From: an uncultured candidatus Brocadiaceae bacterium
GTDB taxonomy: Bacteria; Planctomycetota; Brocadiia; SM23-32
Direction of reading: 5' to 3'
Assembly (NCBI GenBank): GCA_964534775.1
Contig: CAZHPE010000001.1
Location: 33,009 to 65,117 of the forward strand
DNA length: 32,109 bases
The notes under the pieces were generated by a model. The model had not been told where the DNA came from. It ran no database searches and was given only the letters and a program-made list of their open reading frames with translations. Shown here piece after piece: positions 1,086-30,653 of the stretch. Both the position numbers and the translations under genes were made by a program. Each line of letters begins with the position of its first letter. Positions within the stretch are counted from its first letter, which is position 1.

Positions 1086-1139
1086 AATGTCCATGGGGGT
1101 TGAAGCTGAGCGGCGCGTACCCCTATCGCCACGCCGACG

Positions 1140-1168
1140 ATTCTATCAGAATAGTTGCATCATTCCAA
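1140..1168 (-). promoter_or_regulatory. Putative sigma70 promoter for hisS
   Basis: Minus strand TTGGAA-N17-TAGAAT with extended -10 TGn, about 55 bp upstream of the hisS ATG. Confidence 0.55.
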
Positions 1169-1193
1169 GCGCGCCGCGCGGCCACGGGGCCGG

Positions 1194-2538
1194 CTACTTG
1201 AACTGCGGCAGGTGGCCCGAGGAGGCCGCCAGGAGCTCGCCGACCATCGTCTCGGTCTTCTCGGGTGGGATGGCCATCTCGTCCAGCAGCATCGCCTGCA
1301 CGGCCAAGTTCGGGTCGCCCTTGACGGCGGCCTCGACCACCATTTCCTGCCAGGCAATCCTCTTCTGCAAGAGCCCGGCGAGTGCCAGGGGGGCTTCGCC
1401 CGCATACAGCCCGCGCACCCCGACGCTGTCGGTGACGCCTTCGACCTCGAGCACGGCGTAGTCCGGCCGGTTCGGCACGCAGCCGCGGTTGGGGATGTTG
1501 ACGATGTGCGCCTTCCGCCGACCCAGCGCGATGGCCTCGACCAGCGAGCCCAGCCCCTCGCCGGTGACGGCGTCGCTCGGCTCCCCGGGCAGCTCTGCCC
1601 CCGCCAGCAGCTCCTGGAGCGCCTTGAACTGGGCGGCCCGATCCGGCGGCGCGGCCACTTCGCCCGCCTCGGGCTTGAACATGGAGTGGCCGACCTTGCC
1701 CAGGCCGTAGGGGATGTTCTTCGGGCCGCCGACCTGTGCTAGAAACGGGTAGAACTCGACGACGTGCGTGTCTTCGGGGAAGATGAGTTGGAAGCCGTAG
1801 ACGCGCGAGAGCTTCGATGCCATCTCCGAGCCGGGCTTCGGCGTGCGCTTGGCCGTGCGCCTGATCAGCTCCGGGTAGACGTCTCGCCCCCGGCAGCGCA
1901 GCCGCGTGAACCAGTAGTAATGGTTCGTGCCGATCCATACGGCGTCCAGCTCGTGCGGGTCCGCCTCCAGGGCGTCCGCCGCGTGCCGGAGCCCAATCTG
2001 CACGCCGTGGCAGATGCCGATGACGTTTGGCAGGCCCGTATACTTGAGCATCGCGCGGCAGAGCACGGCCATCGGGTTCGAGTGATTCAGCAGCACCACG
2101 TCGGGGCAGCGCTTCTCCATCTCGCGGCAGATCTCCGGGTAGATCGGCACGCTGCGCAGGCCCATCATCATGCCAGCTGGCCCCCCGGTGTCGCCGATGA
2201 TCTGGCAGATGCCATACCGGGATCAGGATGTCGGCCGCGTGGGCCGGGCTTCCGTAGGCGCTCCCCGCGCCCGCACCCGAGCTGCCGATGGCGGAGATGG
2301 CGAAGTCCGCCCCGTCCACGGCCTCCGCCAGGTCGCCGCACGCCCGCACCCTCATCCCCGAGCCGGCCCCATCGGCCATGCGGCGGTCGTGCGACGCCAT
2401 GATCCCGGCCTTCTCGTGGTCGATGTCATAGAGGACGATCTCGCTCCCGCTCAGCCCCTCGGCCACGACCAGGTCTGGCCGCGCCCTCGCGAAGTAGGCG
2501 CTGCCGCCGCCTAGGCAGACGATCTTCTTGCATGCCAT
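1194..2538 (-). pseudogene. GH4 NAD+-dependent glycosidase (MelA/alpha-galactosidase-like), split by a frameshift near 2217
   Basis: N-terminus MACKKIVCLGGGS...LYDID...ADFAISAI...DILIP (ATG 2538, GGAGGAG RBS) is in one frame. YGICQIIGDTGGPAGMMMGLR...NHSNPM...GICHG...GTNHYYW...VNIPNRG...VLEV is in another. Together they form one complete GH4. Confidence 0.88.
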
Positions 2539-2637
2539 GTCCTCGCGCTCCTCCGGCACGATGAATGGGACGGACCCGCTCCGGGTCGGCCACTCGGCAC
2601 AGGGCAACATCATGGCCCCGCGCGCGGGCCGCGTCAC

Positions 2638-2666
2638 TTGACGCATTCTGCGCCGCCCGGTAGGCT
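2638..2666 (+). promoter_or_regulatory. Putative sigma70 promoter for the DUF362 gene
   Basis: TTGACG-N17-TAGGCT, 46 bp upstream of ATG 2713. Confidence 0.6.
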
Positions 2667-2712
2667 CTATCGCTTGCATTTCGAGAGAACAGGGGACGTC
2701 TGGAGGCTGGGC

Positions 2713-3798
2713 ATGAACGAGTTGCTGTTTGCCGATGCACGGGTGCGCGAGCTTTCGTCCGACCACACGCTGCCGGCCAAGTTCCACCGGCTCTTGAAGC
2801 GGCTGGACCTGGAGTCGACGGTCAAGGATCGCTCGGTGGCGATCAAGATGCACCTTGGGGGGCACCTGGGCTATACGACCATCCGCCCGCTGTTCGTGCG
2901 CATGCTGGTGGAGGAGTGCAAGCAGGCGGGGGCGAGGAGCGTGGCGGTGATGGACGGCGACGTCGCAGGGGCGCCGGGGCGGGGCTATACGCCGGAGGTA
3001 GTCGGGGCGCCGATCGTCTCGTGCTTCGGCTGGACGGGCGACTACCTGTACAAGCGGAAGATCGGCTTCGGCGAGTTGAAAGAGGCCATATACGGCGGCA
3101 ACGTCTGGGATGCGGAGGTGTTCATCGACCTGTCCCATGTGAAGGGCCACGGCAACTGCGGCTTCGGCGGCGCCACCAAGAACATCGGCATGGGCTGCGT
3201 CATTGGGAAGACGCGCGGCGCCGTCCATCACCTCGCCGGCGGCATCGTCTGGGACGGGGAGAAGTGCATCCACTGCGGCAAGTGCATCGAGGAGTGCCCG
3301 AACAATGTCAACTCCTTCGACGAAGAGGGCAGCTATAACGTGAGCTGGCACAATTGCACGTTCTGCCAGCATTGCGTCATGATCTGCCCCACAGAGGCGC
3401 TCACGCCCGATGCGGATCGGTTCGATGCTATGCAGGAGGGCCTGGCACACGTCGCGGCGGTGTTCCTGAAGCACTTCAAGCCCGACAGGCTCCTGTTCAT
3501 CAACATCCTCACCGACATCACGATCTACTGCGACTGTTGGGGCATGAGCACCCCGCCGCTGGTGCCCGACATCGGCATCCTGGCCGGGCGCAACATCGTC
3601 GCGGTGGACAAGGCGAGTCTGGACAAGATCAAGTCGTCAAAGCTCATGCCCGAGGGCCTGCCCATCGGTGGTAAGCCCATGCGCAAGAAGGGACACCTCT
3701 TCCAGCGCCTGCACGGCAAGGACCCTTACGTCCAGGTGCGCAAGCTCGAGGAGCTGGGCTTCGGCCCCGCCGACTATAAGATCGTCGAGGTGCGCTGA
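2713..3798 (+). CDS. DUF362 domain protein with a 2x[4Fe-4S] ferredoxin domain
   Basis: AIKMHLG, SHVKGH...GFGGATKNIGMGC, CIHCGKCIEECP and CTFCQHCVMICP, CDC...PDIGILA...VAVDKAS; GGAGG RBS before ATG 2713. Confidence 0.88.
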   Translation: MNELLFADARVRELSSDHTLPAKFHRLLKRLDLESTVKDRSVAIKMHLGGHLGYTTIRPLFVRMLVEECKQAGARSVAVMDGDVAGAPGRGYTPEVVGAPIVSCFGWTGDYLYKRKIGFGELKEAIYGGNVWDAEVFIDLSHVKGHGNCGFGGATKNIGMGCVIGKTRGAVHHLAGGIVWDGEKCIHCGKCIEECPNNVNSFDEEGSYNVSWHNCTFCQHCVMICPTEALTPDADRFDAMQEGLAHVAAVFLKHFKPDRLLFINILTDITIYCDCWGMSTPPLVPDIGILAGRNIVAVDKASLDKIKSSKLMPEGLPIGGKPMRKKGHLFQRLHGKDPYVQVRKLEELGFGPADYKIVEVR

Positions 3799-6463: not shown

Positions 6464-7921
6464 TCAGAACGGGGCGTAGCTCTCGAGCCGGAAGAAAGAG
6501 GGATCCGGGACATAATCGCCGTACTGCTTGTCCATAACGTACTTCGCCCCGGGGCCGTCGGTGATGATGGAGGTGAGGGCCTCAACCAGGTAATCGATCT
6601 CCTCAGCCGTGTTGTATGCGCCCAGGCTCATCCTGACCATGCCCGGCACCGTCGTGTGGCCCCCCTCGGCCAGGCGCTGCGCGATCTCGCGCATCTCTTC
6701 GGTGGAGATGCCGAGCAGTTCCCGCACGTAGGGCTGGGCGCAGAAGCAGCCGTTGCGCACCCCGATGCCCCACTCGTGCGCCAGCACTGCCGCCAGCTTG
6801 CCGTGGTCCAGGCCGTCCGCGCTCAGCGGTATCACGCCCAGCCGGTCGCATCCGAGGTCGGGGTCCGTGCGACCGAACAGCTCGACGCCCGGTTTCCCCA
6901 CGAGCTTCGACAGGGCCCTGCGTGTAAGGTCGCGCTCGTGCTCGGCGACGTTTTCCATGCCGATGGCATTGAGCGTGTGCATCGCGGCCCCGAGGGCCAG
7001 GGCGCCCGGCACGTTGGGCGTGCCGGCTTCTTCCCGTTCGGGCGGGTCGGCCCAGATCACCTCGTCCATCGTGACGGCGTTGATCGTGCCGCCGCCCACG
7101 ACGTCGGGCTCGCCGCTTTCGAAGACACACCTGGGACCGATAAGCACTCCGGACCCGAAGGGCGCGTACATCTTGTGCGCGCTGAAGGCCACGAAGTCGA
7201 TCCTCTCGGGGTCGTCCGGCGCCCCCATCTTGAACGGGCGGTGACCGACGAGTTGGGAGGCGTCCAGGGCGATCATCGCCCCGTGTTCGTGGGCCAGGCG
7301 GGCGATGCGGCGAATGGGCGGCATCTCACCGGTCACGTTGGAGGCGCCGGTAACGGCCACAAGGCAGAGGTTGCCCGCGTTGGCGCGTATCTTGCTTTCC
7401 ATGTCGGAGAGATCAAGGGCGCCGTCCTCGCCCGTAATGCCGGCGTACTCCACCCGGCAACCGGCCTTGCGCCACGGGAGCATGTTGGAATGGTGCTCCA
7501 GGACGGTGGATATGACCATGTGTCCTTCGGGCCGGCACATTCGCATGGCGAGCTTGTTGAGGGCGTGCGTGGCGTTCTGGAGGAAGATGAGGGTGTGGTG
7601 GGAGAGGTCGGCGCCTACGAATTCCGCCACGACCTCGCGGCAGCGCTCGTAGATGTGCGTGGAGAGCAGGGACTTGAATCCGGCGCCCCGGTGGACGCTG
7701 GAATACCACTCGAAGAAGTGCTGCAGACAGTCCAGGACCAGCTTGAACGGGGGGGTGGTGGCGGCGTTGTCGAGGTTGACATAGGGCACCGTGCGGCCGC
7801 CAATGAGCGGGACTTGGCGATCGAGCCCCACCACATAGTCCCGGATGTTGCGGATGTTGACGTGCGAGGCGCTACGGCCCCACTCGCGGCACAGGTCGGC
7901 GATTTCGTCGTCAAATCCCAT
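6464..7921 (-). CDS. Class V PLP enzyme, cysteine desulfurase-like (SufS-type motif)
   Basis: NLDNAATT, VHRG, EHHSN, DASQ, SAHKMYAPFG (PLP Lys), EAGTPN, RNGCFCAQP. Confidence 0.9.
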   Translation of the reverse strand: MGFDDEIADLCREWGRSASHVNIRNIRDYVVGLDRQVPLIGGRTVPYVNLDNAATTPPFKLVLDCLQHFFEWYSSVHRGAGFKSLLSTHIYERCREVVAEFVGADLSHHTLIFLQNATHALNKLAMRMCRPEGHMVISTVLEHHSNMLPWRKAGCRVEYAGITGEDGALDLSDMESKIRANAGNLCLVAVTGASNVTGEMPPIRRIARLAHEHGAMIALDASQLVGHRPFKMGAPDDPERIDFVAFSAHKMYAPFGSGVLIGPRCVFESGEPDVVGGGTINAVTMDEVIWADPPEREEAGTPNVPGALALGAAMHTLNAIGMENVAEHERDLTRRALSKLVGKPGVELFGRTDPDLGCDRLGVIPLSADGLDHGKLAAVLAHEWGIGVRNGCFCAQPYVRELLGISTEEMREIAQRLAEGGHTTVPGMVRMSLGAYNTAEEIDYLVEALTSIITDGPGAKYVMDKQYGDYVPDPSFFRLESYAPF

Positions 7922-7963: not shown

Positions 7964-9487
7964 TCAGGACGAGCCCGCAACGGCCGCCGACTGGTGCTTC
8001 TCCGTGATCCTGCGCTGGATGTCGTTCTTGTATAAACCCCACATACAGACCGGCACGGTTTTCACTGCGCCCGTCTCCGGGTCCTCGTAGGCGAACCCCG
8101 AGGGGCACCCCTCCAGTCGCGCGGACTCGACGGAGTGGTACTCTTCGAAAGGCAGCACCACCATGAGCATGGCGCTCTGGACGTTGGTGTGCTTGCGAAG
8201 CTGGTCTTTCAGCCGCTTGCCTATCGCCAGGCCGCCGAGGATGCGCGCCACCGCAAGGAAACGATTCCCCTTCAGGAGCCTCTTCGTGTCCAACGCACCC
8301 AGCATCAGGCCGCCGAAGGCCCGAATCACCATGAGCCGCCCCCGCCATTTCTCGAACCACTTGTGCGCGTCGAGGCGGGCCAGCTTGACGTCCAGCTTCT
8401 CGGCGCGGCTGACCCAATCCTGGGCTATGTCCTCCAGGGGTCGTTTCAGGTAATCGCTGAGCGGCCGATAGCGCTCTCCGTCGGACAGCAGGTAGGTGGC
8501 GGTCTCACAGTTCGGATGAACGCCGCCGAAGCGCAGGGGCGCAGCGCCGAAGAAATCGAGCGACAGCCTCAGGCTTTCCGACGGGCCCATGGGCAGGAAC
8601 TCCACCCGCCCTTCGGGGAACGCCTCGTCCACGATCTGCTCGACATCTTCGGTCGTGGTCGCAACGTCGGTCTCGAACTCCCCGTCCTCCCACGTCTCGG
8701 TGAGCGGGATCAGGTGCAGGCACTTGATGAAAGAGCGGCTCTCATGGCAGAAATCTATCAGCGACCGCATGTGCTTGTCGTTGATCTTGCGCGCGACGCA
8801 GCACATGATCGTGTTCTTGTGCCGGCTGTACTTCTTCAGGTTCTCGAGCGCCTTCAGCTTCTTTGGATATGCGGCAGGCGTCTTGCGGAGCCTTTGATAT
8901 ATCTCGGGGTCCAGTCCGTCGAAGGCCATCAGCACGTGGACCTTCTCTTCGCATATCCGCTTGCAGTATTCCTCGTCGGCCAGCCTGAGCCCGTTGGTGA
9001 CGATGCGCGGGGAAAGGCCGTAGTTGCGGGCCATCTCGATTATCTCGAACAGGTCGTCGCGCATCGTGGGCTCGCCGCCGAACAGATTCACGGCCGTCGG
9101 CTTGGGTTCCATATCCGCCAAGCCCTTGAAGATGTTCTCGAAGTAGCTGAGCGGCGGATGGAACTCGAACCCCATGCTCGGGATGTTGGCGATGCAGATG
9201 GGGCAGTTCATGTTGCAGCGGTTGGTAACGTCCAGGAATATCATGCGCGGATTATGCTGCACTTTGCAGTTTTCGCAGCGCAGCGAGCATTTCAGCGGCG
9301 AGTCGGGGTCGAAGTGGCAGATATCCCTCTTGCGCTGCCACCGGACCGCGTCCGAGCTCACCAGGGCCTCGGTGGCTCCGCAGTCAGGGCAGTTCTTCTT
9401 GATATATACCTTGCCGTCTCTTATTACATGTTCCGAAGAGACACGCTTGCGGCAGGTATTGCAGATTCCAAAATTGACCGGCGCCAT
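7964..9487 (-). CDS. Radical SAM protein with Tes/MJ0619 (GDGT-MAS)-like architecture
   Basis: N-terminal CNTC...KKNCPDCG, CSLRCENCKVQH, DVTNRCNMNCPICIAN (CxxxCxxC), GGEPT, TNG, FDG, HPNC, C-terminal RLEGC...VPVC. Confidence 0.85.
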   Translation of the reverse strand: MAPVNFGICNTCRKRVSSEHVIRDGKVYIKKNCPDCGATEALVSSDAVRWQRKRDICHFDPDSPLKCSLRCENCKVQHNPRMIFLDVTNRCNMNCPICIANIPSMGFEFHPPLSYFENIFKGLADMEPKPTAVNLFGGEPTMRDDLFEIIEMARNYGLSPRIVTNGLRLADEEYCKRICEEKVHVLMAFDGLDPEIYQRLRKTPAAYPKKLKALENLKKYSRHKNTIMCCVARKINDKHMRSLIDFCHESRSFIKCLHLIPLTETWEDGEFETDVATTTEDVEQIVDEAFPEGRVEFLPMGPSESLRLSLDFFGAAPLRFGGVHPNCETATYLLSDGERYRPLSDYLKRPLEDIAQDWVSRAEKLDVKLARLDAHKWFEKWRGRLMVIRAFGGLMLGALDTKRLLKGNRFLAVARILGGLAIGKRLKDQLRKHTNVQSAMLMVVLPFEEYHSVESARLEGCPSGFAYEDPETGAVKTVPVCMWGLYKNDIQRRITEKHQSAAVAGSS

Positions 9488-9533: not shown

Positions 9534-10100
9534 TCACTGTTCGTCCGCGGCATCCGCCGTCATGGACTCGCCCCCGCCATCGTCGCCCATGATGTCCAGC
9601 GTGGTCCAGCCGAGAAAGAAATCGGCGAGTTCCGCGAAGTGGCAGTTCAATGTGATGCCTACCCACCCCAGGTGCAGCAGCTTCGGACAGTTGAGCAACT
9701 CGTGCTTCGGAATGCTCGTCCCCTTGACCACCGGGATGATGCCCACCTGCCACGGTTCGGGCGAGTTCGGGTCTTCCCAGTCGACATCCTCGTATCCGAG
9801 CTGCTCGCTTCCCTTCAGGAGGATCCCGCCAGCCTTATGGCGCATCGGCAGCGCGCCGGCATCCCTATGCGCGATGCCAAGAAGCGTGCCGTCTACATTA
9901 GAGTACCCGAGCGACACGACGTTGACGAATCCCGCGTATAGAGACAGTTGGGGCTTCTTCGAGACCGTGATGCCGAACTCCATGAAGTCGAGCGCGTCGT
10001 TACCCCTCTTCTGCATGTAACTGCATCCGGTGCTGCTGAAGAGCAATGCGCTCAACAGGACGACGCCAGCCGCACACACAACAAACCTATTAGCCATCAT
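9534..10100 (-). CDS. Hypothetical lipoprotein
   Basis: Basic N-terminus, hydrophobic stretch and lipobox STG-C (MMANRFVVCAAGVVLLSALLFSSTGC). Lies 46 bp upstream of the radical SAM gene on the same strand. Confidence 0.75.
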   Translation of the reverse strand: MMANRFVVCAAGVVLLSALLFSSTGCSYMQKRGNDALDFMEFGITVSKKPQLSLYAGFVNVVSLGYSNVDGTLLGIAHRDAGALPMRHKAGGILLKGSEQLGYEDVDWEDPNSPEPWQVGIIPVVKGTSIPKHELLNCPKLLHLGWVGITLNCHFAELADFFLGWTTLDIMGDDGGGESMTADAADEQ

Positions 10101-10264
10101 GCCTACCTACCCCCTGGACAATCTACGCCAGCGAGAATGTGGATGATTACGAGCGTCCGCCACGAAACAACATACGCCTGCAGGTGCGGGAGCATACTCC
10201 ACGAACCTGCGGATGTCAAAGCTTGAATTTGGCAAAGAACAGCACGGATGAGCACGCTCCAACT

Positions 10265-11516: not shown

Positions 11517-13853
11517 CTATAGAAGACGCTGGAATCCGCTGTGGGCCACGGGGCCCTTCAGGCGCTTTTTCACCTCTTCCTTCTCAAGCGCGTCGGCGAT
11601 CTCGGCGAACACCTCATCGATTGCCACGGCGTAGCGCCCGATGATCCGGTCAGTGTGCGCCAGCGTAACGGAGATGGACAGCCCGGCGAGGTAGCCGCGC
11701 TCCAGCATGAGCTGAATGTAGAGGGTCTTGAGCTCGGCGGCGAGCGCGTGCTCGAAAGCGAAGTGCGCCAGGGCCGGGTAGGTATCCTCAACCTCTACCG
11801 GAAGTCCGTGCCGCCCGGCCGCCGCGCGCCAGGCGTCCTGGACCTTTCGGCCGATGCGTGCGCAGTGCGCCGGCACATCTACCTCCTGCATCTTCCGGAT
11901 GGTGGCGAGCGCCGCCGCCGGTCCGATTCCCTCCGTCCAGTATGTGCTGCTGATGAAGGACGTGTGAGCGCCCTCCATGGCCTCGCGCGTTCCAATCACG
12001 GCGGCCATGGGGTGGCCGTTGGCGATGCTCTTGGCGAAGACCGCCATGTCGGGCGAGACCCCGAGCCTAAGATGCGCCCCGCCCAGAGCGAGCCGCCAGC
12101 CGATCGACACTTCGTCGAAGACCAGCAGCGCCCCGGCCCTGTGCGCCTCGTCGCGGACGAACTCGAGGAACCCCGGCTCGGGGTCCCGGTAGCGGCACGG
12201 CTCCATGACGACCGCCGCCAGCCGGTCCCCGTGCTCGTCGAGGATTCTCGTCAGTTCCTCGCGGTTGTTGTAGGTGAAGGTGAGCGAGGTGCCGCGGAGC
12301 TCCCTCGGCACCCCGAGCGGATCGAGCCCGGAGAGCAGGTGGCCGCGCAGGGCGTCGTTCTCGCCGAGGTTCGCCGCGAGATACCAGTCGTGCCAGCCGT
12401 GGTAGCCGCAGATGGCGATCAGCGAGCGGTCGGTCGTGGCGCGCGCTATGCGGGCCGCAATGCTCATTATCTCGCCACCGGTGCGCGCATACCGCACCTG
12501 CTCCGCCCATGGGTGCAGCTCGCAAAGGAGCCTGGCGAGCTCGACCTCCTCGGGCGGGCTGAGCGTGCAGAAGCTGCCCCGGGCGATGCGGCGCTGGACC
12601 GCGCGGGTTACATCCGGGTTCCTGAACCCCAGCAGGCATGCCGAGATGCCGGTCTTGCCGACGTCGTAGTAGTGCCTCCCGTCCAGGTCCCATACCTCGC
12701 ACCCGCGCGCCTCGCGGAAGTAAGCGGGCCACTGATCCGGGGCTTCCATCTCGGGGCGTTTGCTAAGGAGCTGCGTCCCGCCGGGGATGATGGTCTTCGC
12801 CTCGCGGTAGAGGTCCTGGACGACGCCCTCCGTCTCTGCCTTCATGCCGAGCAGGCGCAGGGCGTTGTCGCAGAAGACGTCCTGGAGGTCTTCTGCGCTC
12901 AGGAACCCGCCATCGGCCGCCCTGAGCAGCGCGTGGAGCGATTCCAGGCCGACCATGACCGGTTCGCCGAAGAACGCCCTCTCATTCCATTCCATCTGGT
13001 CCGTGGCGACCCAGACGAAACCGGTTCCGAGCGTGACGGCGCGCCCGCGCTCCTGCGAGACCGGGAAGTCGGTGCCCCACAGCAGGCGGCGCGGGCCGAA
13101 CTCGTCCAGGATGGCCGCGAACGGCTCGGCCTCGCAGATGGCCGCCGAATCGAACCAGACGTTCTCGAGCCCCCGCAGCGCGGAGATGCCCTTCACGGTG
13201 TTGGTAGCGTTGAATCCCCGTGCCGCGTGGGCCAGCAGAAGCCTGGCGTTCGGGTACTTCTCGCATCGGGTGACGATGCTCTTCTGGTTCTGCGGGTCCG
13301 AAAGCGCGCCGAGCCGCACCATGTGAAGCAGGATGACCAGCCCGCGCTCTTCGGCCAGCTCCCACGCCCACTCGGGCACGAACTCATCCAGCGTACACTC
13401 GTACGAGGGCGATTTCCCGCTGTAGACGTGGTAGGGCTTGAAGCAGCGCACGCGCGGGTTCTGAAGCAGCGCCTCGGCGGCCTCCCGCGTTTGCTCGGGG
13501 TAAACAAGGATGGAAGCCGCACACCCCGGGGCGTCAGCAACCTGCGCGGCCACGTATGCGTTGGCCGCGTCGGGATCGCCGTCCCGGCTGGGGTGGGGCG
13601 TGAACAGGGCGCCGCAGAGGCATTCGGCGCCCACCTGGCCGCCGATGTAGTGGCGCCAGGTCGCTTGGTCGTACTCCGGCGGACCGCTTGCGTAGAAGGC
13701 GCCGTAGGGGTCCAGATGCTCTTTGTGGAAGAGGTGCGCGTGGACGTCGAAGAGGCGTTCCGGAAGGCGCGCCTGCAGCTCCGCCGCAAACGCGCGGTCC
13801 GCCTCCGTGAAGGTCCATCCCGGGGGGATGTCGGGGTTCATCATCTCGCTCAT
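11517..13853 (-). CDS. Fusion of an N-terminal amidohydrolase-superfamily domain and a C-terminal class III aminotransferase (GSA-aminomutase-like)
   Basis: N-half: DVHAH, KPYH, LLHM, LAHAARGF, WFDS, GTDFP. C-half: IPGGTQLLSKRPE, RTGGE, GYHGWHDW, MEP, FDEV, FAKSIANG, SSTY. Confidence 0.9.
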   Translation of the reverse strand: MSEMMNPDIPPGWTFTEADRAFAAELQARLPERLFDVHAHLFHKEHLDPYGAFYASGPPEYDQATWRHYIGGQVGAECLCGALFTPHPSRDGDPDAANAYVAAQVADAPGCAASILVYPEQTREAAEALLQNPRVRCFKPYHVYSGKSPSYECTLDEFVPEWAWELAEERGLVILLHMVRLGALSDPQNQKSIVTRCEKYPNARLLLAHAARGFNATNTVKGISALRGLENVWFDSAAICEAEPFAAILDEFGPRRLLWGTDFPVSQERGRAVTLGTGFVWVATDQMEWNERAFFGEPVMVGLESLHALLRAADGGFLSAEDLQDVFCDNALRLLGMKAETEGVVQDLYREAKTIIPGGTQLLSKRPEMEAPDQWPAYFREARGCEVWDLDGRHYYDVGKTGISACLLGFRNPDVTRAVQRRIARGSFCTLSPPEEVELARLLCELHPWAEQVRYARTGGEIMSIAARIARATTDRSLIAICGYHGWHDWYLAANLGENDALRGHLLSGLDPLGVPRELRGTSLTFTYNNREELTRILDEHGDRLAAVVMEPCRYRDPEPGFLEFVRDEAHRAGALLVFDEVSIGWRLALGGAHLRLGVSPDMAVFAKSIANGHPMAAVIGTREAMEGAHTSFISSTYWTEGIGPAAALATIRKMQEVDVPAHCARIGRKVQDAWRAAAGRHGLPVEVEDTYPALAHFAFEHALAAELKTLYIQLMLERGYLAGLSISVTLAHTDRIIGRYAVAIDEVFAEIADALEKEEVKKRLKGPVAHSGFQRLL

Positions 13854-13855
13854 GC

Positions 13856-14824
13856 TCACGCCGTCCTTTCGCTTATCTCGTCCAGCGGAACCTTGCGCCC
13901 GCCCTCCTTGCGGCTGCGGGTGCCGGCGATGATGATCTTCATCATCTCGACCGTCTGCGGCCACGGGATCGGCCGCTCGCCGGTGCGAAGATAATCCACG
14001 AAGCTCTGGAGCTGCGTCTTGAATGCGTAGAACGTGTCGGAAACGCTAGCCTTCAGGTCCGACTTCGTGCCCATGACGGAGAGGTGCCCGAACCCGCCGT
14101 GCATGTCCTTTATTGCGATCAGGACCACATCAACGCCGCGCTCGTGCTCCAGGTGGACGATGTTGCGGTCTATGGTGCCGGTGTTGCGCGCGGAGGTAAA
14201 CCCTGGCCCGACAAGGGGATACAGTCCTTCCAGGGCGTGAACCCCGTAGCGCTCCCAGGTCTTCGCCGTGGAGAGCGAAAGAAACCGCAGCTCTCCGATT
14301 TCGCCCAACTGCTCCCGCGCCGCCGCGAACTCGCGCGAGTAGCGCAAGGCGCTCGAGGAGATGAGCGCCTTGCCTTCCTGCACCCAGGCGTGAAAGGCCT
14401 GGAGGTCGGGCTCGTTATCGACGAGCGGCTTGTCGACGAAGATCGGCAGCCCGGCCTCGATAAACGGGCGCGCCCGGTCCACGTGCTCGTGCCCGATGTC
14501 GGTGGCGATGATGACGGCGTCCACCTGGCCGATCACGTCCGCGGCCGTCTCGACGACGTTGGGTATCCTCGAAGCCGCGGCGACCCTTTCGGCAGCGGTC
14601 GGATCGTCGGTCCAGATGTGGGTCACGCGGGCGCCCTCGATCTGGAGCGTCGCGGGGTCCTCGGCGCCGAGGTACTCGGGGATCGTGGCGTAGGGGCAGT
14701 CCGCCATCGCCTCCCGATCGTACCCGTTGAAGATGGCGCTCCAGGAGTAAGGGTGGCCGTTCCCGTCGACCATGCCGAGCATGGCCAGGCGTATGTTGTC
14801 TGCGTCCGGCACGAGGGCTGCCAT
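13856..14824 (-). CDS. Gfo/Idh/MocA family oxidoreductase
   Basis: RLAMLGMVDGNGHPYSWS, DAVIIAT, FVDKPL, SSSALRY, YGVH; the stop abuts the next start. Confidence 0.85.
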   Translation of the reverse strand: MAALVPDADNIRLAMLGMVDGNGHPYSWSAIFNGYDREAMADCPYATIPEYLGAEDPATLQIEGARVTHIWTDDPTAAERVAAASRIPNVVETAADVIGQVDAVIIATDIGHEHVDRARPFIEAGLPIFVDKPLVDNEPDLQAFHAWVQEGKALISSSALRYSREFAAAREQLGEIGELRFLSLSTAKTWERYGVHALEGLYPLVGPGFTSARNTGTIDRNIVHLEHERGVDVVLIAIKDMHGGFGHLSVMGTKSDLKASVSDTFYAFKTQLQSFVDYLRTGERPIPWPQTVEMMKIIIAGTRSRKEGGRKVPLDEISERTA

Positions 14825-25051: not shown

Positions 25052-26773
25052 ATGGCCAAGGCACAGATGCTTTCGGCACCCGCGGATGCAGCGGTCAACG
25101 CGGTGACGTTCGGCGTATGCTCGGCGGCTGATCCGCGCATCCCTCCGGAGGCGCGCGAGCGCTGCGTCAACATCGTCCGGATGGCTGCCGAGACCATCGC
25201 GAAGGGCGTGAAGATACCCGACGGTCGGCCCGTGAACGTCGTCTGGACGGACGTGGTGGTCGGCGGCGAGCGGGACGCGGACGTCGTCGCGCGGCAGTTC
25301 CGCGAGGCATGCGTCGACGCCGTGGTCGTCACGCCCGATACCTGGGCGTTCCCGCAGCCCACGCTCATGAGCCTGTTCAGCCACCTTCCCAAGGACATCC
25401 CCATCAACATCACCTGCGGCAATAACGGCTCCAAGCCCGGGATGGTCTACTCCCACGGCGTGAACGGTGCGCTGGCGCAGGGCGGCCGTCTGACGACGCT
25501 TAACGTGGGCGACTGGCTGGCGACGGGCCAGAAGCCGAGGATGACGCCCGAAACGGCCGAGGCGCTCATCGACTGGTGCTACGGCGCGCTGGCGGCCGCG
25601 GGCCTGAAAGGGCGGCGCGTGGTGATTTTCGGCCACGACTCCATGGGCATCGAGACCTGCCTGGCCCACGTGATACCCACGCGCAATACCTTCGGGATCG
25701 AGATCACGCGCCTGGACATGAAGCTCCTGGGCGACATGCTGACCGGCGGCGCGTACGACAAGAAGGAGGTCAAGGCGCTGCGGGCGTGGTTCAACCGGTA
25801 CGTCGGGGACCGCATCGAGTTGCGCGATGAGGCCGACGACGAGAAGTTCGACCTCTCGCTGGCGATGTACCTCATCGTGCGCGACATCATGGACGATCTG
25901 GACGCGGTCGGTGGCGGCTTCCAGAGCCAGCTCGAATGGGGCTCCGACCCCCGCTGCGTGCCGATGCCCGTGGCCGACCCGATGGAGAGCCTGTTCAACG
26001 CCACCTTCGATCACCGCGGGCGCAAGGCGCCCGTGCCTTACGCGACCGAGTCCGACGCGCAGGGCGTCCTGACGATGCTGGTCATGACCTGGCTCACGGG
26101 CGGCAATCCCCCGCTGTTCATGGACTTCCGGAAGGTCTGGGAGCCGTGGGAGATCAAGCTCGCGTGCGAGAAGCTCGAGGTCCCCTGCACGGGCGACGAG
26201 CCGTGGATGGAGAAGGGGTTTGTGGACGGCGAGAACTCCGGCTCCGCCAGCCTCAACTGGGCGGCCGCGCCCGGCGCCTCCGTCAGCGAGTGCATGAACG
26301 GGGTCTCGATGGGGGCGGCCGGTAGGTGGTATGAGTTCGCCGGCGGCGGGAACAACGTGCGGTTCGTCTCGCCCGGCGGCATAGAGGGCATAGCGGCCCG
26401 GCTGAGCTACAGCGACCTGACCGGCATGTTCTCGCTCCTGTGGGACGAGGCCTACAGCGTCGATCTGCCCCCCGAGCTGGCCGAGGTTGTCTGCAACGCC
26501 TCAACCTACACCTGGCCGCACTCCTTCCTGGTGCCCAAGTACGCGACCATGAAGGAGTACAAGCAGTACGCGCCGACCAACCACTCCCACATGACGTGGA
26601 ACCTGCCGCCGGCCCGGCTGGAGCACTGGATGGACCTGACCCAGGTGCTCTCGGAGACGCCCTGGGCGGCGCGGGATGCGTGGATCGACGGCGTGGACAG
26701 GCCGCTGCCGCTGCTCTACCTCCTCAACGGCGGCGAGAACAATGCCAAGCTGAAGCTGGCCGGGAAGGCGTAG
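25052..26773 (+). CDS. L-fucose/D-arabinose isomerase family protein
   Basis: AGGAGG RBS; DPRI, TWAFP, DSMGI, GFQSQLEW, and candidate Mn ligands in ATESDAQG (Glu), FMDFR (Asp), TWPH and PTNH (His). Confidence 0.88.
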   Translation: MAKAQMLSAPADAAVNAVTFGVCSAADPRIPPEARERCVNIVRMAAETIAKGVKIPDGRPVNVVWTDVVVGGERDADVVARQFREACVDAVVVTPDTWAFPQPTLMSLFSHLPKDIPINITCGNNGSKPGMVYSHGVNGALAQGGRLTTLNVGDWLATGQKPRMTPETAEALIDWCYGALAAAGLKGRRVVIFGHDSMGIETCLAHVIPTRNTFGIEITRLDMKLLGDMLTGGAYDKKEVKALRAWFNRYVGDRIELRDEADDEKFDLSLAMYLIVRDIMDDLDAVGGGFQSQLEWGSDPRCVPMPVADPMESLFNATFDHRGRKAPVPYATESDAQGVLTMLVMTWLTGGNPPLFMDFRKVWEPWEIKLACEKLEVPCTGDEPWMEKGFVDGENSGSASLNWAAAPGASVSECMNGVSMGAAGRWYEFAGGGNNVRFVSPGGIEGIAARLSYSDLTGMFSLLWDEAYSVDLPPELAEVVCNASTYTWPHSFLVPKYATMKEYKQYAPTNHSHMTWNLPPARLEHWMDLTQVLSETPWAARDAWIDGVDRPLPLLYLLNGGENNAKLKLAGKA

Positions 26774-26785
26774 CGTGCCGGAAAA

Positions 26786-26814
26786 TTGACAGGTGTGGCC
26801 GGAGTGGGTACCTT
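26786..26814 (+). promoter_or_regulatory. Internal sigma70 promoter upstream of the RLP gene
   Basis: TTGACA-N17-TACCTT, 12 bp after the isomerase stop. Confidence 0.65.
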
Positions 26815-26885
26815 GCTCTGTCCGCAGCGCCCCCGTCCCGAGAGGGGCGAGGGCCATCGGCCCAGGAAGAAAGGCGAAGCGATCC

Positions 26886-28235
26886 ATGTACACGCGTTAC
26901 TACTATCCGGAGATATTCGAACAGACGCTCGACGGCATCGACCGCAGCACGCACATAATGGCGACGTATTACGTGGCCGACGAGCTGGCGGGCGAGGACT
27001 TTATCGAGCACTTCTCGCTGATTCAGGCCATGGTCCTCGAGGGTTCGACGGGAACCTGGCAGGACGTGCCGGATCATACGCTGGAGGTCCGCCAGCGGCT
27101 GTGCGGCAAGATGGTGGGCTATTACGAGGTCCCCACCGACAGCCCATACAAGCGCGCTGCGGTGGTGCAGCTCGCCTTCCCGATAGATGCCTGGACCGAC
27201 AATGTGCCGATGATGCTTCTTAGCATCGCAGGCAACTGCTTCGCGTTCAGCAAGGGGCTGCGCCTCCTGGACGTGTTCATTCCGGAGAAGTTGCTGGCGA
27301 ACTTCAAGGGCCCGAAGTTCGGCGTGCCGGGCATTCGCGAGCTGATGGGCGAGCAGGAGCGGCCCTTCTCTCTCCACATCATCAAGCCGAAGATGGGCAT
27401 GACGCCCAAGCAGCTCGCCAAGCAGTGCTACGAGACGGCGATGGGCGGGGTGGACATGATCAAAGACGACGAGATGACCAGCGACGTCTACAACTCGAGC
27501 TACGATGACCGCCTAAAGGCCGTGCTGGAGGCCCTGGACAAGGCCGAGACGAAGACCGGCAAGCGGGTCATCTACTACCTGAGCATCACTGACGAGCCGC
27601 GTCGCATCTTCGATAAGGCGGCGAGGGCCGTCGAGCTCGGCGCGCGCGGCCTTCTGATCTGCTACTCGGCGGGCCTGCCGGTCCTTCGCCAGATTGCGGA
27701 GGACCCGGCGATCAATGTGCCGATACTGTTCCACGGCTCGCACATGATCGCCGCCACGCCCACCATCTCATGGCCGGTCTTCGCCAAACTCGCCCGGCTG
27801 TGCGGCGCCGACCTGATGCTCACACCCACGTACTGGTCGAGCATTCCGATGGTGAGCCTGGAGGAAGGCATCCGCACCGCACACATAAAGCTCGCGCCTC
27901 TGGGCCACATCAAGCCCATGTGGCCGATGCCCTGCGCGGGCATCTACCCGGGGCTGATGCCCATACTGGTCGGGGAGTACGGGCCGGACATCATCGTCCC
28001 GGCCGGCGGCGGCATGCTGGGGCATCCGGACGGTTACCGGGCCGGTGCGGCGTCCTGGCAGCAGGCGATAAGCGCGACCATGTCCGACGAGCACATCGCC
28101 GAGTACGCGAAACGAGCCGAGAACAAGGAGCTGCGGCGTGCGCTGGAGCACTGGGGCCACATCGAACGCCCCAAGACCCCCTGGCTGCGCGTGGCCCCGA
28201 AGTTCCACCCGAAGAAGATGACCTTCGACGAGTGA
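26886..28235 (+). CDS. RuBisCO-like protein (form IV, non-carboxylating)
   Basis: EGSTGTW, AGN, GPKFG..GIR, IKPKMG, DMIKDDE, LFH, ARLCGAD, GGGMLGHPDG..AGA. It lacks the HR arginine, the H327 equivalent and the loop-6 GK. No small subunit or phosphoribulokinase lies nearby. Confidence 0.93.
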   Translation: MYTRYYYPEIFEQTLDGIDRSTHIMATYYVADELAGEDFIEHFSLIQAMVLEGSTGTWQDVPDHTLEVRQRLCGKMVGYYEVPTDSPYKRAAVVQLAFPIDAWTDNVPMMLLSIAGNCFAFSKGLRLLDVFIPEKLLANFKGPKFGVPGIRELMGEQERPFSLHIIKPKMGMTPKQLAKQCYETAMGGVDMIKDDEMTSDVYNSSYDDRLKAVLEALDKAETKTGKRVIYYLSITDEPRRIFDKAARAVELGARGLLICYSAGLPVLRQIAEDPAINVPILFHGSHMIAATPTISWPVFAKLARLCGADLMLTPTYWSSIPMVSLEEGIRTAHIKLAPLGHIKPMWPMPCAGIYPGLMPILVGEYGPDIIVPAGGGMLGHPDGYRAGAASWQQAISATMSDEHIAEYAKRAENKELRRALEHWGHIERPKTPWLRVAPKFHPKKMTFDE

Positions 28236-28259
28236 TCGTCACAGGAGAGGTTGGCAGCA

Positions 28260-29744
28260 ATGGCGAGACGCCGCTTTCTCGCATTCGATCTGGGGGCCGA
28301 GAGCGGGCGCGCCGTCGTCGGCACGCTCGAAGGCGGCCGGCTCGCGCTCGATGAGATCCACCGGTTCCCGAACGAACCGGTCGAGTTGTGCGGCACGCTA
28401 CACTGGGACGTGCTGAGCCTCTTCAGGAACGTGCTGGCGGGAATGAGGGCGTACGTCGAGCGTTTCGGCGACTCGGTGGACGGGATCGGAATCGACACCT
28501 GGGGCGTGGACTTCGGCCTCCTGGCGGCGGACGGGGCGTTGCTTCAGAACCCGGTGCATTACCGCGACCGGCGCACCGACGGCATGCTGGAAGAGTTGCA
28601 GCGGCGGATCGCCCCGCAAGAGTTATATGAGAAGACCGGGCTGCCCCAGTCGCCCGTTCATACCGTCTGCCAACTGCTCTCCATGCGCCGGAAGCGCAGC
28701 CCGATCCTCGAGTCCGCCGCCACGCTCCTCATGATGCCCGACCTGTTCGCGTACTTCCTGACGGGCGAGAAGCGCTGCGAACGTACCGAGGCCGTCAGCA
28801 GCCAGCTCTATGATCCGCGAAGCGGCGAATGGCACAAGGGCGTCTTCGAGGCCCTCGATCTGCCGCTTTCCATCATGCCGGAGCTTGTGGACCCCGGCAC
28901 CGTCCTGGGGGAGCTTAGCCAGTCGGTCAAACGCGAAACCGGCCTCAAGGAAGCGCCCGTGATTGCCGCGTGCACGCATGATACGGCGGCGGCCGTCGCG
29001 GCCGTACCGGGCAGGGGCGATGGCTGGGCCTTCCTGAGTTCCGGCACGTGGTCCGTTCCGGGGGCGCTCACCGCCGAGGTCGTGACCTCCGAGGGGGCCC
29101 TGGCGGCCGGGATGCTCAACGAACTGACGCTCGGGAGCACGTTCCTGTGTCGCAACATCCTGGGCCTGTGGCTCCTCCAGCAGGCGCGCGCCGTGTGGCA
29201 GCGGGGCGGCGAGGATTATTCGTATGCCGACCTCGTCAGCCTGGCGGAAGGCGCGCCCGAAGGCGGCGCCCTGGTGCACATCGACGACGCCGCTTTCCTG
29301 GCGCCGGAGGACATGTGCCGGGCCATCCGGGACTACTGCAAGCGCACCGGGCAGCCGCAGCCGGAGGGGCCAGCCGAGATTTCGCGCTGCATCCTGGAGA
29401 GCCTCGCCCTGTGCTATCGCCGCGCGCTGGATCAGCTCAAGGCCATCCTCGGGCGGGATTTCGACGTTATGCACGTTGTAGGCGGCGGCTCTCTCAACAC
29501 GCTCCTGTGCCGGCTCACGGCCGATGCGACGGGCATTCCGGTTCTTGCCGGGCCGGTCGAGACGGCCGTCGCGGGAAACGTTCTCGTGCAGGCTTATGCC
29601 CGCGGCTTTCTCGGCTCGCCTCAGGAGATTCGCGACGTCGTCCGCGAGTCGTCCGAACTGGTCGAATATGAACCCCACGACGCCGCGCGGTGGGACGAGC
29701 GCTACGGCCGGTATGTCGAGCTGGCCGACGGGCGGCACGGATAG
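28260..29744 (+). CDS. FGGY carbohydrate kinase, rhamnulokinase/fuculokinase-like
   Basis: AFDLGAESGR, HRFPN, GIDTWGVDF, HYRDRRT, MPDL, HDTA, SSGTWS, NILGLWLLQ, ESLAL, VGGGS, AGPVE, GN. Confidence 0.92.
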   Translation: MARRRFLAFDLGAESGRAVVGTLEGGRLALDEIHRFPNEPVELCGTLHWDVLSLFRNVLAGMRAYVERFGDSVDGIGIDTWGVDFGLLAADGALLQNPVHYRDRRTDGMLEELQRRIAPQELYEKTGLPQSPVHTVCQLLSMRRKRSPILESAATLLMMPDLFAYFLTGEKRCERTEAVSSQLYDPRSGEWHKGVFEALDLPLSIMPELVDPGTVLGELSQSVKRETGLKEAPVIAACTHDTAAAVAAVPGRGDGWAFLSSGTWSVPGALTAEVVTSEGALAAGMLNELTLGSTFLCRNILGLWLLQQARAVWQRGGEDYSYADLVSLAEGAPEGGALVHIDDAAFLAPEDMCRAIRDYCKRTGQPQPEGPAEISRCILESLALCYRRALDQLKAILGRDFDVMHVVGGGSLNTLLCRLTADATGIPVLAGPVETAVAGNVLVQAYARGFLGSPQEIRDVVRESSELVEYEPHDAARWDERYGRYVELADGRHG

Positions 29745-29786
29745 CTTGCCCCCATGGAGACGGCGCCCCGCGCGCCCGGCCGGGGT

Positions 29787-30653
29787 TCAACGCGCCTTGC
29801 CGACGCTGCCGAACAGTTCCAGCTTCCCTTCGACATACCCCTCTATTCGCTTCATCGCCTCGGCAAGCGCCGGGCGGGGGTCGACATACTCCGGGCCCGC
29901 GCCGAGGCCGGCGCGGACGGCGTCCACGAAGGCCTTCCGCAGTCCGTGGGCCACGTTCACCTTCGCTATGCCCAGGCCGATGGCCGTGCGCATCTGCTCG
30001 TCCGGAATGCCCGTGCCACCGTGAAACACGAGGGGAATTGACACTCTCTGCGCAATTCGATCCAGCCGGTCGAAGTCCATCTCTATCTTCTTGGTGTCGA
30101 AGCAGCCGGAGATCGACCCGACGCTGACGGCCAGGAAGTCGATGCCGGACTTCTCGGCGAACTCTGCGGCCTCGTCAGGATCGGTCATCATCGCCTCGAT
30201 CTGCTCGGGGCTGGCGTTCGGGTCGCGGCTCACCTGCCCCAGTTCGCCTTCCACCGCCGCCCCAAGGGGCCTTGCGGCCGCGACGACCCGCTGCATGAGG
30301 GCGATGTTCTCCTCCAGCGGCAGGTGAGAGCCGTCCGCCATTACCGACGGAAACCCGAGCTTCAGACAGTCGACGATCAGATCAAGCGGCATCTCGCGCG
30401 AGCCGTGGTCCAGGTGAAAGGTCGCCGGGACGGCCGCCGCTTCAAGCGCCGAGAGGACCGAGCGGCAGAGCGACTCCTTCGCGTAGAAGTCGAAGTTTAT
30501 GAAGCTCGTCTGGATCATCACGGGCGAGCTGGTGCGTTCGCAGGCGCGCAGCACCCCTTCGAGCAGCTCGAGATTGAACACGTCGAATCCCGCGATGCAG
30601 TACCCGTCTGCCGCGGCGTCCTCGAGCATCTGCCTGGCCGGAACCAAAGGCAT
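29787..30653 (-). CDS. Class II fructose/tagatose-bisphosphate aldolase family protein (atypical metal site)
   Basis: SPVMIQ, FHLDHG, SVMADGS, VEGELG, TDPDEA, LAVSVGSISG, LVFHGGTG, KVN. Confidence 0.9.
   Translation of the reverse strand: MPLVPARQMLEDAAADGYCIAGFDVFNLELLEGVLRACERTSSPVMIQTSFINFDFYAKESLCRSVLSALEAAAVPATFHLDHGSREMPLDLIVDCLKLGFPSVMADGSHLPLEENIALMQRVVAAARPLGAAVEGELGQVSRDPNASPEQIEAMMTDPDEAAEFAEKSGIDFLAVSVGSISGCFDTKKIEMDFDRLDRIAQRVSIPLVFHGGTGIPDEQMRTAIGLGIAKVNVAHGLRKAFVDAVRAGLGAGPEYVDPRPALAEAMKRIEGYVEGKLELFGSVGKAR

Follow-up and report, generated by a model that had tools for sequence, protein, structure and literature searches.

A stretch of 32,109 nucleotides, referred to here as the window, comes from an uncultured candidatus Brocadiaceae bacterium (GTDB lineage Bacteria; Planctomycetota; Brocadiia; SM23-32; GenBank assembly GCA_964534775.1, contig CAZHPE010000001.1, positions 33,009 to 65,117 of the forward strand). 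On its reverse strand lie three adjacent genes encoding a lipoprotein, a radical S-adenosylmethionine (SAM) enzyme, and a SufS-like pyridoxal phosphate (PLP) enzyme. An earlier note, made from the sequence alone, had described the radical SAM enzyme as a divergent relative of the tetraether synthases (Tes/GDGT-MAS), which in archaea join the tails of membrane lipids through C(sp3)-C(sp3) bonds. The three genes and their features, in window coordinates, are as follows.

10191..10219, minus strand: sigma-70-like promoter match (10/12) in the 290-nt gap ahead of the lipoprotein gene; possible start of a three-gene unit
9534..10100, minus strand: orphan lipoprotein, 188 aa, the Cys form of a candidate cysteine/selenocysteine (Cys/Sec) family
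10023-10025, minus strand: lipobox Cys26 of the lipoprotein
9687-9689, minus strand: invariant Cys138 of the lipoprotein, the Cys counterpart of the UGA forms
7964..9487, minus strand: radical SAM protein, GDGT-MAS/Tes fold, 507 aa (P0001), clade "FAM", subclade T1
9353..9466, minus strand: rubredoxin-like/Zn-ribbon domain, residues 8-45, ligands C9, C12, C33, and C36 (Pfam PF23545, E 6.5e-12)
9254..9289, minus strand: C67-x3-C71-x2-C74-x3-H78, predicted ligands of the N-terminal auxiliary [4Fe-4S] cluster; Cys common to FAM, Tes, and TrsS
9194..9217, minus strand: C91-x3-C95-x2-C98, radical SAM cluster motif, invariant (Pfam PF04055)
8507..8518, minus strand: H324-P-N-C327, invariant in 61 members; C327, shared with Tes and TrsS, is predicted to be the first ligand of the C-terminal cluster
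8189..8437, minus strand: basic helical insert, residues 351-433, net charge +10, helices in the model
8045..8155, minus strand: C-terminal cluster region with L445 (Tes Met439), C461, F465 (Tes Tyr459), and C481
6464..7951, minus strand: SufS-like class-V PLP enzyme, 495 aa, beginning 12 nt after the radical SAM stop codon
7172-7174, minus strand: PLP lysine K260 of the SufS-like enzyme
6740-6748, minus strand: G-C402-F-C404-A motif of the SufS-like enzyme

Homologues in a 61-row family alignment begin at the methionine encoded at 9487, and a Shine-Dalgarno-like GGAAGG run lies 8 nt upstream of this codon; the start of the radical SAM protein was therefore placed there and not at the longer in-frame ATG at 9553. 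The promoter scan found one site against 0.9 expected in the region, and only the position of the match is suggestive.

Fold and relatives of the radical SAM enzyme

The metal-binding motifs that the earlier note had picked out are all present in the radical SAM protein: the SAM-cluster CxxxCxxC as C91x3C95x2C98, an N-terminal CxxC...CxxC metal site as C9xxC12...C33xxC36, a CxxxCxxCxxxH before the core as C67x3C71x2C74x3H78, HPNC as H324-P-N-C327, and a C-terminal RL..C...P.C as R457-L-x-x-C461...P479-x-C481. Pfam recognizes the radical SAM core (Radical_SAM, PF04055; E 1.9e-19, 70.9 bits against a gathering score of 29.5) and the HMPTM/MJ0619 zinc ribbon (Zn_ribbon_HMPTM, PF23545). Across the 61 aligned family members, C9, C12, C33, C67, C71, C74, C91, C95, and C98 are invariant, as are H324-C327, C461, P479, and C481; C36 and H78 are conserved in at least 90% of the members, and C57 is not conserved. 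Given the Pfam matches and this conservation, the motifs are not chance occurrences.

The sole solved relative found by sequence is GDGT-MAS of M. jannaschii (MJ0619, PDB 7TOL/7TOM), which aligns with residues 6-344 (E 1e-35); the two proteins are 21% identical. An AlphaFold model built on the 61-row alignment (pLDDT 88.3, pTM 0.89) matches 7TOM and 7TOL over its whole length in Foldseek (TM 0.76/0.77 and E 4e-31 for 7TOM). In a VIA comparison, residues 2-506 of the model superimpose on residues 2-496 of the GDGT-MAS chain (Z 39.9, rmsd 3.4, 436 residues), the next entry being MoaA at Z 18.4. The proposed Tes/GDGT-MAS architecture, with its four domains, is thus borne out by the structural comparison that the note had suggested, and all cluster cysteines in this confident model are common to Tes. 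The divergent C-terminus that had also been claimed is real at the level of sequence, where HMMER cannot align residues 345-507 to the M. jannaschii protein, but the divergence does not extend to the fold, which aligns to residue 506, or to the three C-terminal cluster cysteines, which Tes shares. Because the structural match is whole-length, the C-terminal domain is considered homologous in fold to that of GDGT-MAS despite the lack of an HMMER alignment. Residues 351-433 are predicted to form basic, partly hydrophobic helices, and in the model this insert appears to match the position of the amphipathic-helix lipid pocket of GDGT-MAS. No transmembrane segment was found in the protein.

Judged by sequence, the enzyme is not a Tes orthologue and belongs to a separate long-branch clade centred on Planctomycetota, here called FAM. 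It scores 164.1 bits against the Tes model NF045702 (cut-off 450), with only residues 8-348 aligned, and 139 bits against the TrsS model NF045646 (cut-off 490). Twelve representatives of the clade score 146-201 bits with the Tes model, and no protein of the window's own genome reaches the Tes cut-off. In a search of 1.84 billion representatives, full-length members of the family scored 306-534 bits and the next full-length proteins 142 bits or less; NCBIfam labels on 70 of these matches gave 18 true Tes, 4 true TrsS, 4 near-Tes, 12 members of the window family, and 32 unassigned proteins. An unrooted superfamily tree of 76 rows (quick IQ-TREE, LG+G4) placed the 18 FAM rows on one side of a branch with an SH-aLRT of 100 and a length of 0.81. 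The nearest neighbours are unassigned clades, followed by a low-scoring clade labelled Tes. The phylogeny proposed as a check therefore upholds the divergent subfamily, as a clade of its own among GDGT-MAS-fold relatives and not in an unrelated radical SAM subgroup. TrsS, which belongs to the same superfamily, has the same N-terminal half, and is linked with selenoproteins in a table entry of a review (PMC13188914), falls in a different part of the tree. No in-frame TGA was found in 37 radical SAM matches of the window's clade.

Four metal sites are present in GDGT-MAS, namely a rubredoxin-like Fe (C9X2C12X20C33X2H36), an N-terminal cluster ([Fe4S4]N), the SAM cluster, and a C-terminal cluster ([Fe4S4]C), as set out in the portions available here of Lloyd et al. 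(2022; PMC9433317) and of a 2026 review (PMC13459092). In the M. jannaschii enzyme, [Fe4S4]N is bound by C73, C77, C80, and a histidine, and [Fe4S4]C by three cysteines and a labile Met439, with Tyr459 near the substrate's terminal carbon. Although 1000 archaeal homologues conserve both Met439 and Tyr459, full C-C coupling activity is retained by the M439A and Y459F/L variants (PMC9433317). The window enzyme has the same four domains (rubredoxin-like, N-terminal cluster, radical SAM core, and C-terminal cluster), the same rubredoxin-like spacing (C9-X2-C12-X20-C33-X2-), a 3Cys+His N-terminal cluster motif, the CX3CX2C motif, and three C-terminal cluster cysteines. An alignment of 18 FAM, 22 Tes or near-Tes, and 4 TrsS rows, from which the 32 unassigned rows were excluded, confirmed that the cluster cysteines are all common to FAM and Tes. 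The fourth rubredoxin-like ligand, in contrast, is Cys36 in FAM (Cys4) and His36 in Tes (Cys3His); the CPDC noticed earlier in place of the usual CPxH is diagnostic of the clade: all 18 family rows carry Cys there, and all 22 Tes and near-Tes rows carry His. At the Met439 position, 15 of the 18 FAM rows have Leu and the other 3 have Ile (Met in 19 of 22 Tes rows), and the three commonest residues at the Tyr459 position in FAM are Phe (13 rows), Met (2), and Trp (1), as compared with Tyr in 18 of 22 Tes rows. Instead of the Tes motifs M-H-F-x-D-x-Y-N and C-x-[IV]-H-Y, FAM has [LI]-P-[FY]-E-[DE] and C-x-x-x-F. C175, C247-H248, W266, and E328 are specific to FAM.

Species-representative genomes yielded 329 relatives of the enzyme, and 79 loci were retained, nearly all from Planctomycetota metagenome-assembled genomes (MAGs), together with one Sumerlaeota MAG and three labelled Anaerolineales. 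Within an even set of 301 Planctomycetota genomes, a superfamily member at E<=1e-30 occurs in 73, a protein above the Tes cut-off in 6, and FAM in 11, the window's genome included, with copy numbers that rise to at least five per genome. The window's genome, of 3.13 Mb and 92.7% completeness, contains two copies, the second being a 43%-identical paralogue of subclade T2 on contig C176, and tandem FAM arrays occur elsewhere (e.g., four copies in L034). One genome with a Tes-scoring gene, G120, also has a member of the window's clade; its true Tes-scoring gene (L105, G120:C58) is flanked upstream by a second radical SAM gene and downstream by a ceramidase-like gene. Fused forms were also seen: a 903-aa open frame containing a pair each of zinc ribbons and radical SAM cores (L001:1-2711, minus strand) and, among proteins P0162 and P0244, the clade's N-terminus joined to TPR repeats (726 aa) and a 1024-aa form in which an nSTAND3 NTPase precedes a superfamily member.

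The SufS-like and lipoprotein partners

A functional context for the clade came from its gene neighbourhood. When the window's neighbouring genes were compared with the 79 loci by tblastn, the SufS-like gene recurred in 23 and the lipoprotein gene in 24, while each of the remaining window genes recurred in two loci at most. In the usual arrangement, one or two lipoprotein paralogues (of types A and B; that of the window is type B) come first, the radical SAM gene next, and the SufS-like gene last, often with a T2 radical SAM gene adjoining. At 54% identity or more there are 34 loci, 30 of them with enough flanking sequence; the lipoprotein gene lies directly upstream in 16 of the 30 and the SufS-like gene directly downstream in 16 of the 30. 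A locus tree of 95 rows was built with FastTree, without L005 and L012, whose matches contain an internal stop, and without the partial L018 and L021. In this tree, a T1 radical SAM gene lies within 1.5 kb of a SufS-like gene, a lipoprotein gene, or both in 24 of 38 rows, and of a SufS-like gene in 19 of 38, and the cassette spans T1 from the basal branches (the Sumerlaeota locus L074; L030, L032, and L033) to the crown. The ancestral T1 neighbourhood is thus the cassette of lipoprotein gene or genes, radical SAM gene, and SufS-like gene. FAM differs from Tes in having this cassette and in being multi-copy: when the window's SufS-like protein and lipoprotein were searched for by tblastn in the six Tes-scoring Planctomycetota loci, which have only about 1.5 kb of flank on either side, neither gave a match. 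In subclade T3, whose members are less than 54% identical to the window protein, a lipoprotein with a thioredoxin fold (G-C-x-x-C) is encoded upstream of the radical SAM gene in 15 of 37 loci (among them L042, L046, L056, L059, L064, L068, L070, L073, and L075-L078), an AhpC/TSA lipoprotein further upstream in 6, and an OmpA-type lipoprotein downstream in 6.

When the SufS-like enzyme is aligned with B. subtilis SufS (E 3e-59), its PLP lysine (SAHK260M) and Cys404 of its catalytic loop fall in register, and both residues are invariant in 22 of 22 cassette copies. It also differs from SufS in several respects. It scores 286.7 bits against the SufS model TIGR01979 (cut-off 475.1), has G-C-F-C-A where group II enzymes (SufS/CsdA/CsdB) have G-H-H-C-A, is longer by about 55 residues at the N-terminus and by an insertion of about 24 behind the catalytic loop, and, unlike SufS, is restricted to genomes with the radical SAM clade. 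A profile of the SufS-like family scores at least 640 bits in 9 of the 11 FAM-positive genomes and in none of the 290 FAM-negative ones, where the best score is 388 bits; the two FAM-positive genomes without a cassette-type SufS-like enzyme are 84-86% complete. Additional evidence for a shared function came from genome G196 (L126:379-3456, minus strand), in which the radical SAM and SufS-like proteins form one uninterrupted open reading frame (ORF) of 1025 aa, joined by a linker of about 30 residues. The same fusion is present in a 1007-aa metagenome protein (P0300) that is 95% identical (53 differences), and since this second sequence carries it, the fusion is genuine and cannot be put down to one read error. 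A predicted complex of the radical SAM protein with SufS-like residues 29-495 scored 0.00, which is evidence neither way.

The lipoprotein has a signal peptide and a lipobox (G25-C26, at least 90% conserved), followed by Cys138, then H143 and an acidic C-terminal motif, and the residues directly after the lipobox cysteine are unusually conserved. A word search among 5.8 billion clusters found 25 homologues, and the protein matches no Pfam or NCBIfam model except for 15-26 bits to a Leptospira adhesin family. Its predicted structure (pLDDT 90.4) has long beta-hairpins; a Foldseek search of pdb returned nothing at E<=0.001 (best TM 0.14-0.22), and the highest Z in a wide VIA search of 48,161 chains was 3.3. 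The lipoprotein profile scores at least 119 bits in 10 of the 11 FAM-positive genomes and 66 bits or less in FAM-negative ones, and FAM-positive genomes have up to 10 scored copies each. Tandem arrays of five or six paralogues occur at L112 (G244:C236:400-7600), G076:C99, and G101:C215, and Cys and Sec forms are mixed within one tandem array.

Evidence that the lipoproteins, which have an orphan fold, may form a new selenoprotein family came from sequence comparison of 16 paralogues (L111-L123) in four genomes (G055, G162, G244, and G289) that contain an in-frame TGA. The UGA aligns with Cys138 in 16 of 16, and the conserved sequence continues beyond it; one UGA form lies directly upstream of a radical SAM and SufS-like pair (G162:C89). 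In 13 of the 16, a hairpin, CCACGUR-GGY-YACGUGG, begins 11-14 nt after the UGA (e.g., L112:2864-2911 and L117:666-713), whereas Cys paralogues encode the same peptide without the hairpin. RNAalifold, applied to an alignment of all these sequences except L111, whose hairpin differs (15 of 16), found eight pairs starting 13 nt beyond the UGA, three of them with compensatory double changes; the conserved hairpin measures 7-8 bp, and codon choices within it covary. Minimum free energy z-scores of single regions resembling selenocysteine insertion sequences are weak (-0.3 to -2.6), and covariation in the alignment is the better evidence. All four genomes have SelA and a TGA-containing SelD, and three of the four have SelB above the cut-off; SelA, SelB, and SelD were not found in the window's genome, whose lipoproteins have Cys. 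Such a family is not mentioned in the available text of three papers from the selenoproteome literature (PMC13188914, PMC12013277, PMC13326102) or in the results of a full-text search. Two paralogues, L118 (G244:C28) and L120 (G162:C25), have a second in-frame TGA within an insertion (C-x-G-P-x-U-G) and may be double selenoproteins. The window's own genome has a type-A lipoprotein gene on contig C176, convergent with the T2 radical SAM gene, whose frame is broken by a run of 10 Ns (L081 2798-2807); an in-frame TGA in this gene was rejected as a selenocysteine codon, being a true stop.

Possible chemistry of the radical SAM enzyme

The best explanation, which we prefer tentatively, is a Tes-type C-H activation in which the carbon radical is trapped as a C-S bond, using sulfur from the desulfurase, as part of an envelope thiol/selenol system. 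The SAM cluster (C91/C95/C98) would generate a 5'-deoxyadenosyl radical. A long hydrophobic substrate, most probably a lipid tail, would lie in a Tes-type tunnel, and the radical would abstract hydrogen from one of the substrate's unactivated sp3 carbons. The carbon radical would then be captured at the C-terminal [4Fe-4S] cluster (C327/C461/C481), where the absence of the Tes methionine ligand would leave a free iron site. The C-S adduct, transient before C-C coupling in Tes, would here be the productive outcome, yielding a thiolated or thioether product or, in an alternative form, carbons bridged by a thioether. The SufS-like enzyme would deliver or replenish the sulfur, either as a persulfide or via a cysteine adduct cleaved by the PLP domain, and the periplasmic Cys/Sec lipoproteins would act on or with the product in thiol/selenol chemistry. 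As parts of this explanation, the radical SAM and SufS-like proteins would work as one unit and be linked in function to the exported lipoprotein, and the radical SAM protein would be a cytoplasmic enzyme associated peripherally with the membrane.

Precedent for the C-S step comes from M. jannaschii GDGT-MAS itself, where the substrate forms a sulfur-linked adduct with [Fe4S4]C and, when SAM is limiting, a lipid with one extra sulfur is released (PMC9433317). This documented adduct, the absent methionine ligand, the desulfurase partner, and the thiol/selenol lipoproteins together suggest that the clade stops at, or exploits, the C-S step. The SufS-like partner, the Cys/Sec lipoproteins, and the lack of lipid-synthesis genes nearby likewise point to a shift from C-C tail coupling towards C-S chemistry. 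It is from these considerations that we infer the substrate class, the C-S bond outcome, and the role of the lipoproteins. In BioB, LipA, and MiaB/RimO, a carbon radical is caught by sulfur from an auxiliary cluster, one of whose ligand positions is free or not occupied by Cys (PMC9433317). The likeness is one of analogy only, as these enzymes have an unrelated fold outside the SAM core. We know of no enzyme of the BioB, LipA, or MiaB/RimO type that is fused to a cysteine desulfurase.

While these data are consistent with C-S chemistry, several observations weigh against it. No lipid-biosynthesis gene is conserved beside the cassette in Pfam scans of the flanks, which used greedy ORF calls that picked antisense frames in high-GC loci. 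The coupling activity kept by the M439A and Y459F/L variants would make the FAM substitutions compatible with Tes-like chemistry, and a desulfurase that adjoins, or is joined to, a protein containing three Fe-S clusters might serve only in their assembly. In the window's genome no SufB, and no SufS above the cut-off, was found. The fusion is from one lineage only, 14 of the 38 T1 rows lack the cassette and represent paralogues in other contexts, and subclades T2 and T3 have no adjacent SufS-like gene.

Several of these points favour Tes-like C-C coupling of lipid tails, with the SufS-like enzyme only supplying sulfur to build or repair the three Fe-S clusters of the radical SAM protein. This is unlikely, but it survives best among the alternatives. 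The enzyme has the full-length GDGT-MAS fold with conserved cluster cysteines and a basic helical insert apparently at the site of the second lipid pocket of GDGT-MAS, Tes is active without Met439 or Tyr459, and Planctomycetota "Tes homologues" are treated as candidate producers of brGDGTs (branched forms of glycerol dialkyl glycerol tetraethers) in the available portions of two studies (PMC11868695; Zeng et al., 2022, PMC8941075). The window's genome, moreover, has no other obvious SUF system. Tail coupling is hard to reconcile, however, with a score so far below the Tes cut-off and a separate long-branch clade, or with the lack of matches to either partner within about 1.5 kb of true Tes-scoring genes (6/301 genomes). 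Up to five or more paralogues per genome, with matching lipoprotein expansions, fit a single housekeeping lipid reaction poorly, and the strict phyletic coupling and the desulfurase fusion exceed what generic cluster supply would explain.

It is improbable, though still worth weighing, that the radical SAM protein is a maturase acting in the cytoplasm on the precursor of the lipoprotein, ahead of its export; it might, for instance, form a thioether or selenoether at the invariant Cys/Sec while this residue is bound to the free iron of the C-terminal cluster. The radical SAM and lipoprotein paralogues expand together, with T1 accompanied by type B and T2 by type A (L020 and the window genome's own contig C176), the sister subclade T3 pairs with a different, thioredoxin-fold lipoprotein, and the residues directly after the lipobox cysteine are unusually conserved. 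The enzymes anSME and QhpD modify exported proteins before export, and a substrate cysteine can bind auxiliary clusters. Exchange of Cys and Sec, however, marks a catalytic residue of the mature protein and not one consumed by modification, and the three kinds of partner lipoprotein have no common motif beyond the lipobox. A maturase would also leave the desulfurase without a role, and the long hydrophobic tunnel of the fold suits alkyl chains (PMC9433317). Two more specific versions were rejected: an anSME-type formylglycine maturase, as the lipoprotein lacks a C/S-x-P-x-R motif, and NifB/NifS-like delivery of a cofactor to the lipoprotein, as only one Cys/Sec is invariant and a twin-arginine signal does not occur consistently.

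Least probable is that the genes are merely co-regulated in an anaerobic or oxidative-stress envelope regulon, with the radical SAM enzyme acting on an unrelated small hydrophobic metabolite: the outer flanks of the cassette differ in every locus in the Pfam scans and the window's other genes belong to sugar metabolism, but the SufS-like fusion and the genome-level co-occurrence argue for a shared pathway, and the cassette is retained from the Sumerlaeota MAG to Planctomycetota.

A bolder extension of the C-S trapping mechanism, and a long shot, is that the radical SAM-desulfurase pair makes a sulfur-terminated membrane lipid, possibly bearing selenium in hosts that decode Sec, which would serve as a membrane carrier of redox equivalents or sulfur. 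If so, a thiol lipid would link cytoplasmic cysteine to the exported Cys/Sec, thioredoxin-like, and peroxiredoxin-like lipoproteins, providing a lipid-based alternative to transmembrane electron transfer of the DsbD/CcdA type.

Implications for Tes homologues, and other genes in the window

The obligate coupling of a GDGT-MAS-fold enzyme to a cysteine desulfurase, with fusion of the two in one lineage, suggests that the fold was recruited for C-S chemistry. This bears on the use of bacterial Tes relatives as markers of lipid synthesis. Bacterial "Tes homologues" have been reported as possible brGDGT makers (Zeng et al., 2022, PMC8941075), and the available portions of a Black Sea study report them in 110 of 684 Planctomycetota MAGs by a blastp criterion of E<1e-30 and identity of at least 30% (PMC11868695), thresholds that members of the FAM clade could pass. 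Since FAM represents a different enzyme in a different context, and since only 6 of 301 Planctomycetota genomes pass the Tes model, counts based on such loose BLAST thresholds need finer classification before brGDGT sources are deduced from them. A further radical SAM enzyme, the Thermotoga membrane-spanning lipid synthase Mss, has been proposed to use Tes-like coupling, according to the portions available of a review (PMC13459092). The T. maritima genome, used as a control, has no match to the Tes profile at E<=1e-30, which places Mss outside the Tes superfamily at that threshold; the two are thus set apart by profile and not by direct comparison.

Beyond the cassette, two unusual ORFs lie on the minus strand, and a group of sugar-acid genes (25052-30653) looks like a catabolic pathway for sugars that depends on a RuBisCO-like protein.

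1123-3474, minus strand: 783-aa ORF with only a short mid-protein match to the N-terminal domain of glycoside hydrolase family 4 (GH4)
11517-13964, minus strand: 815-aa ORF, Amidohydro_2 plus class-III aminotransferase
25052-26773, plus strand: L-fucose-isomerase-like protein
26793-28235, plus strand: RuBisCO-like protein
28251-29744, plus strand: FGGY kinase
29787-30653, minus strand: class II aldolase

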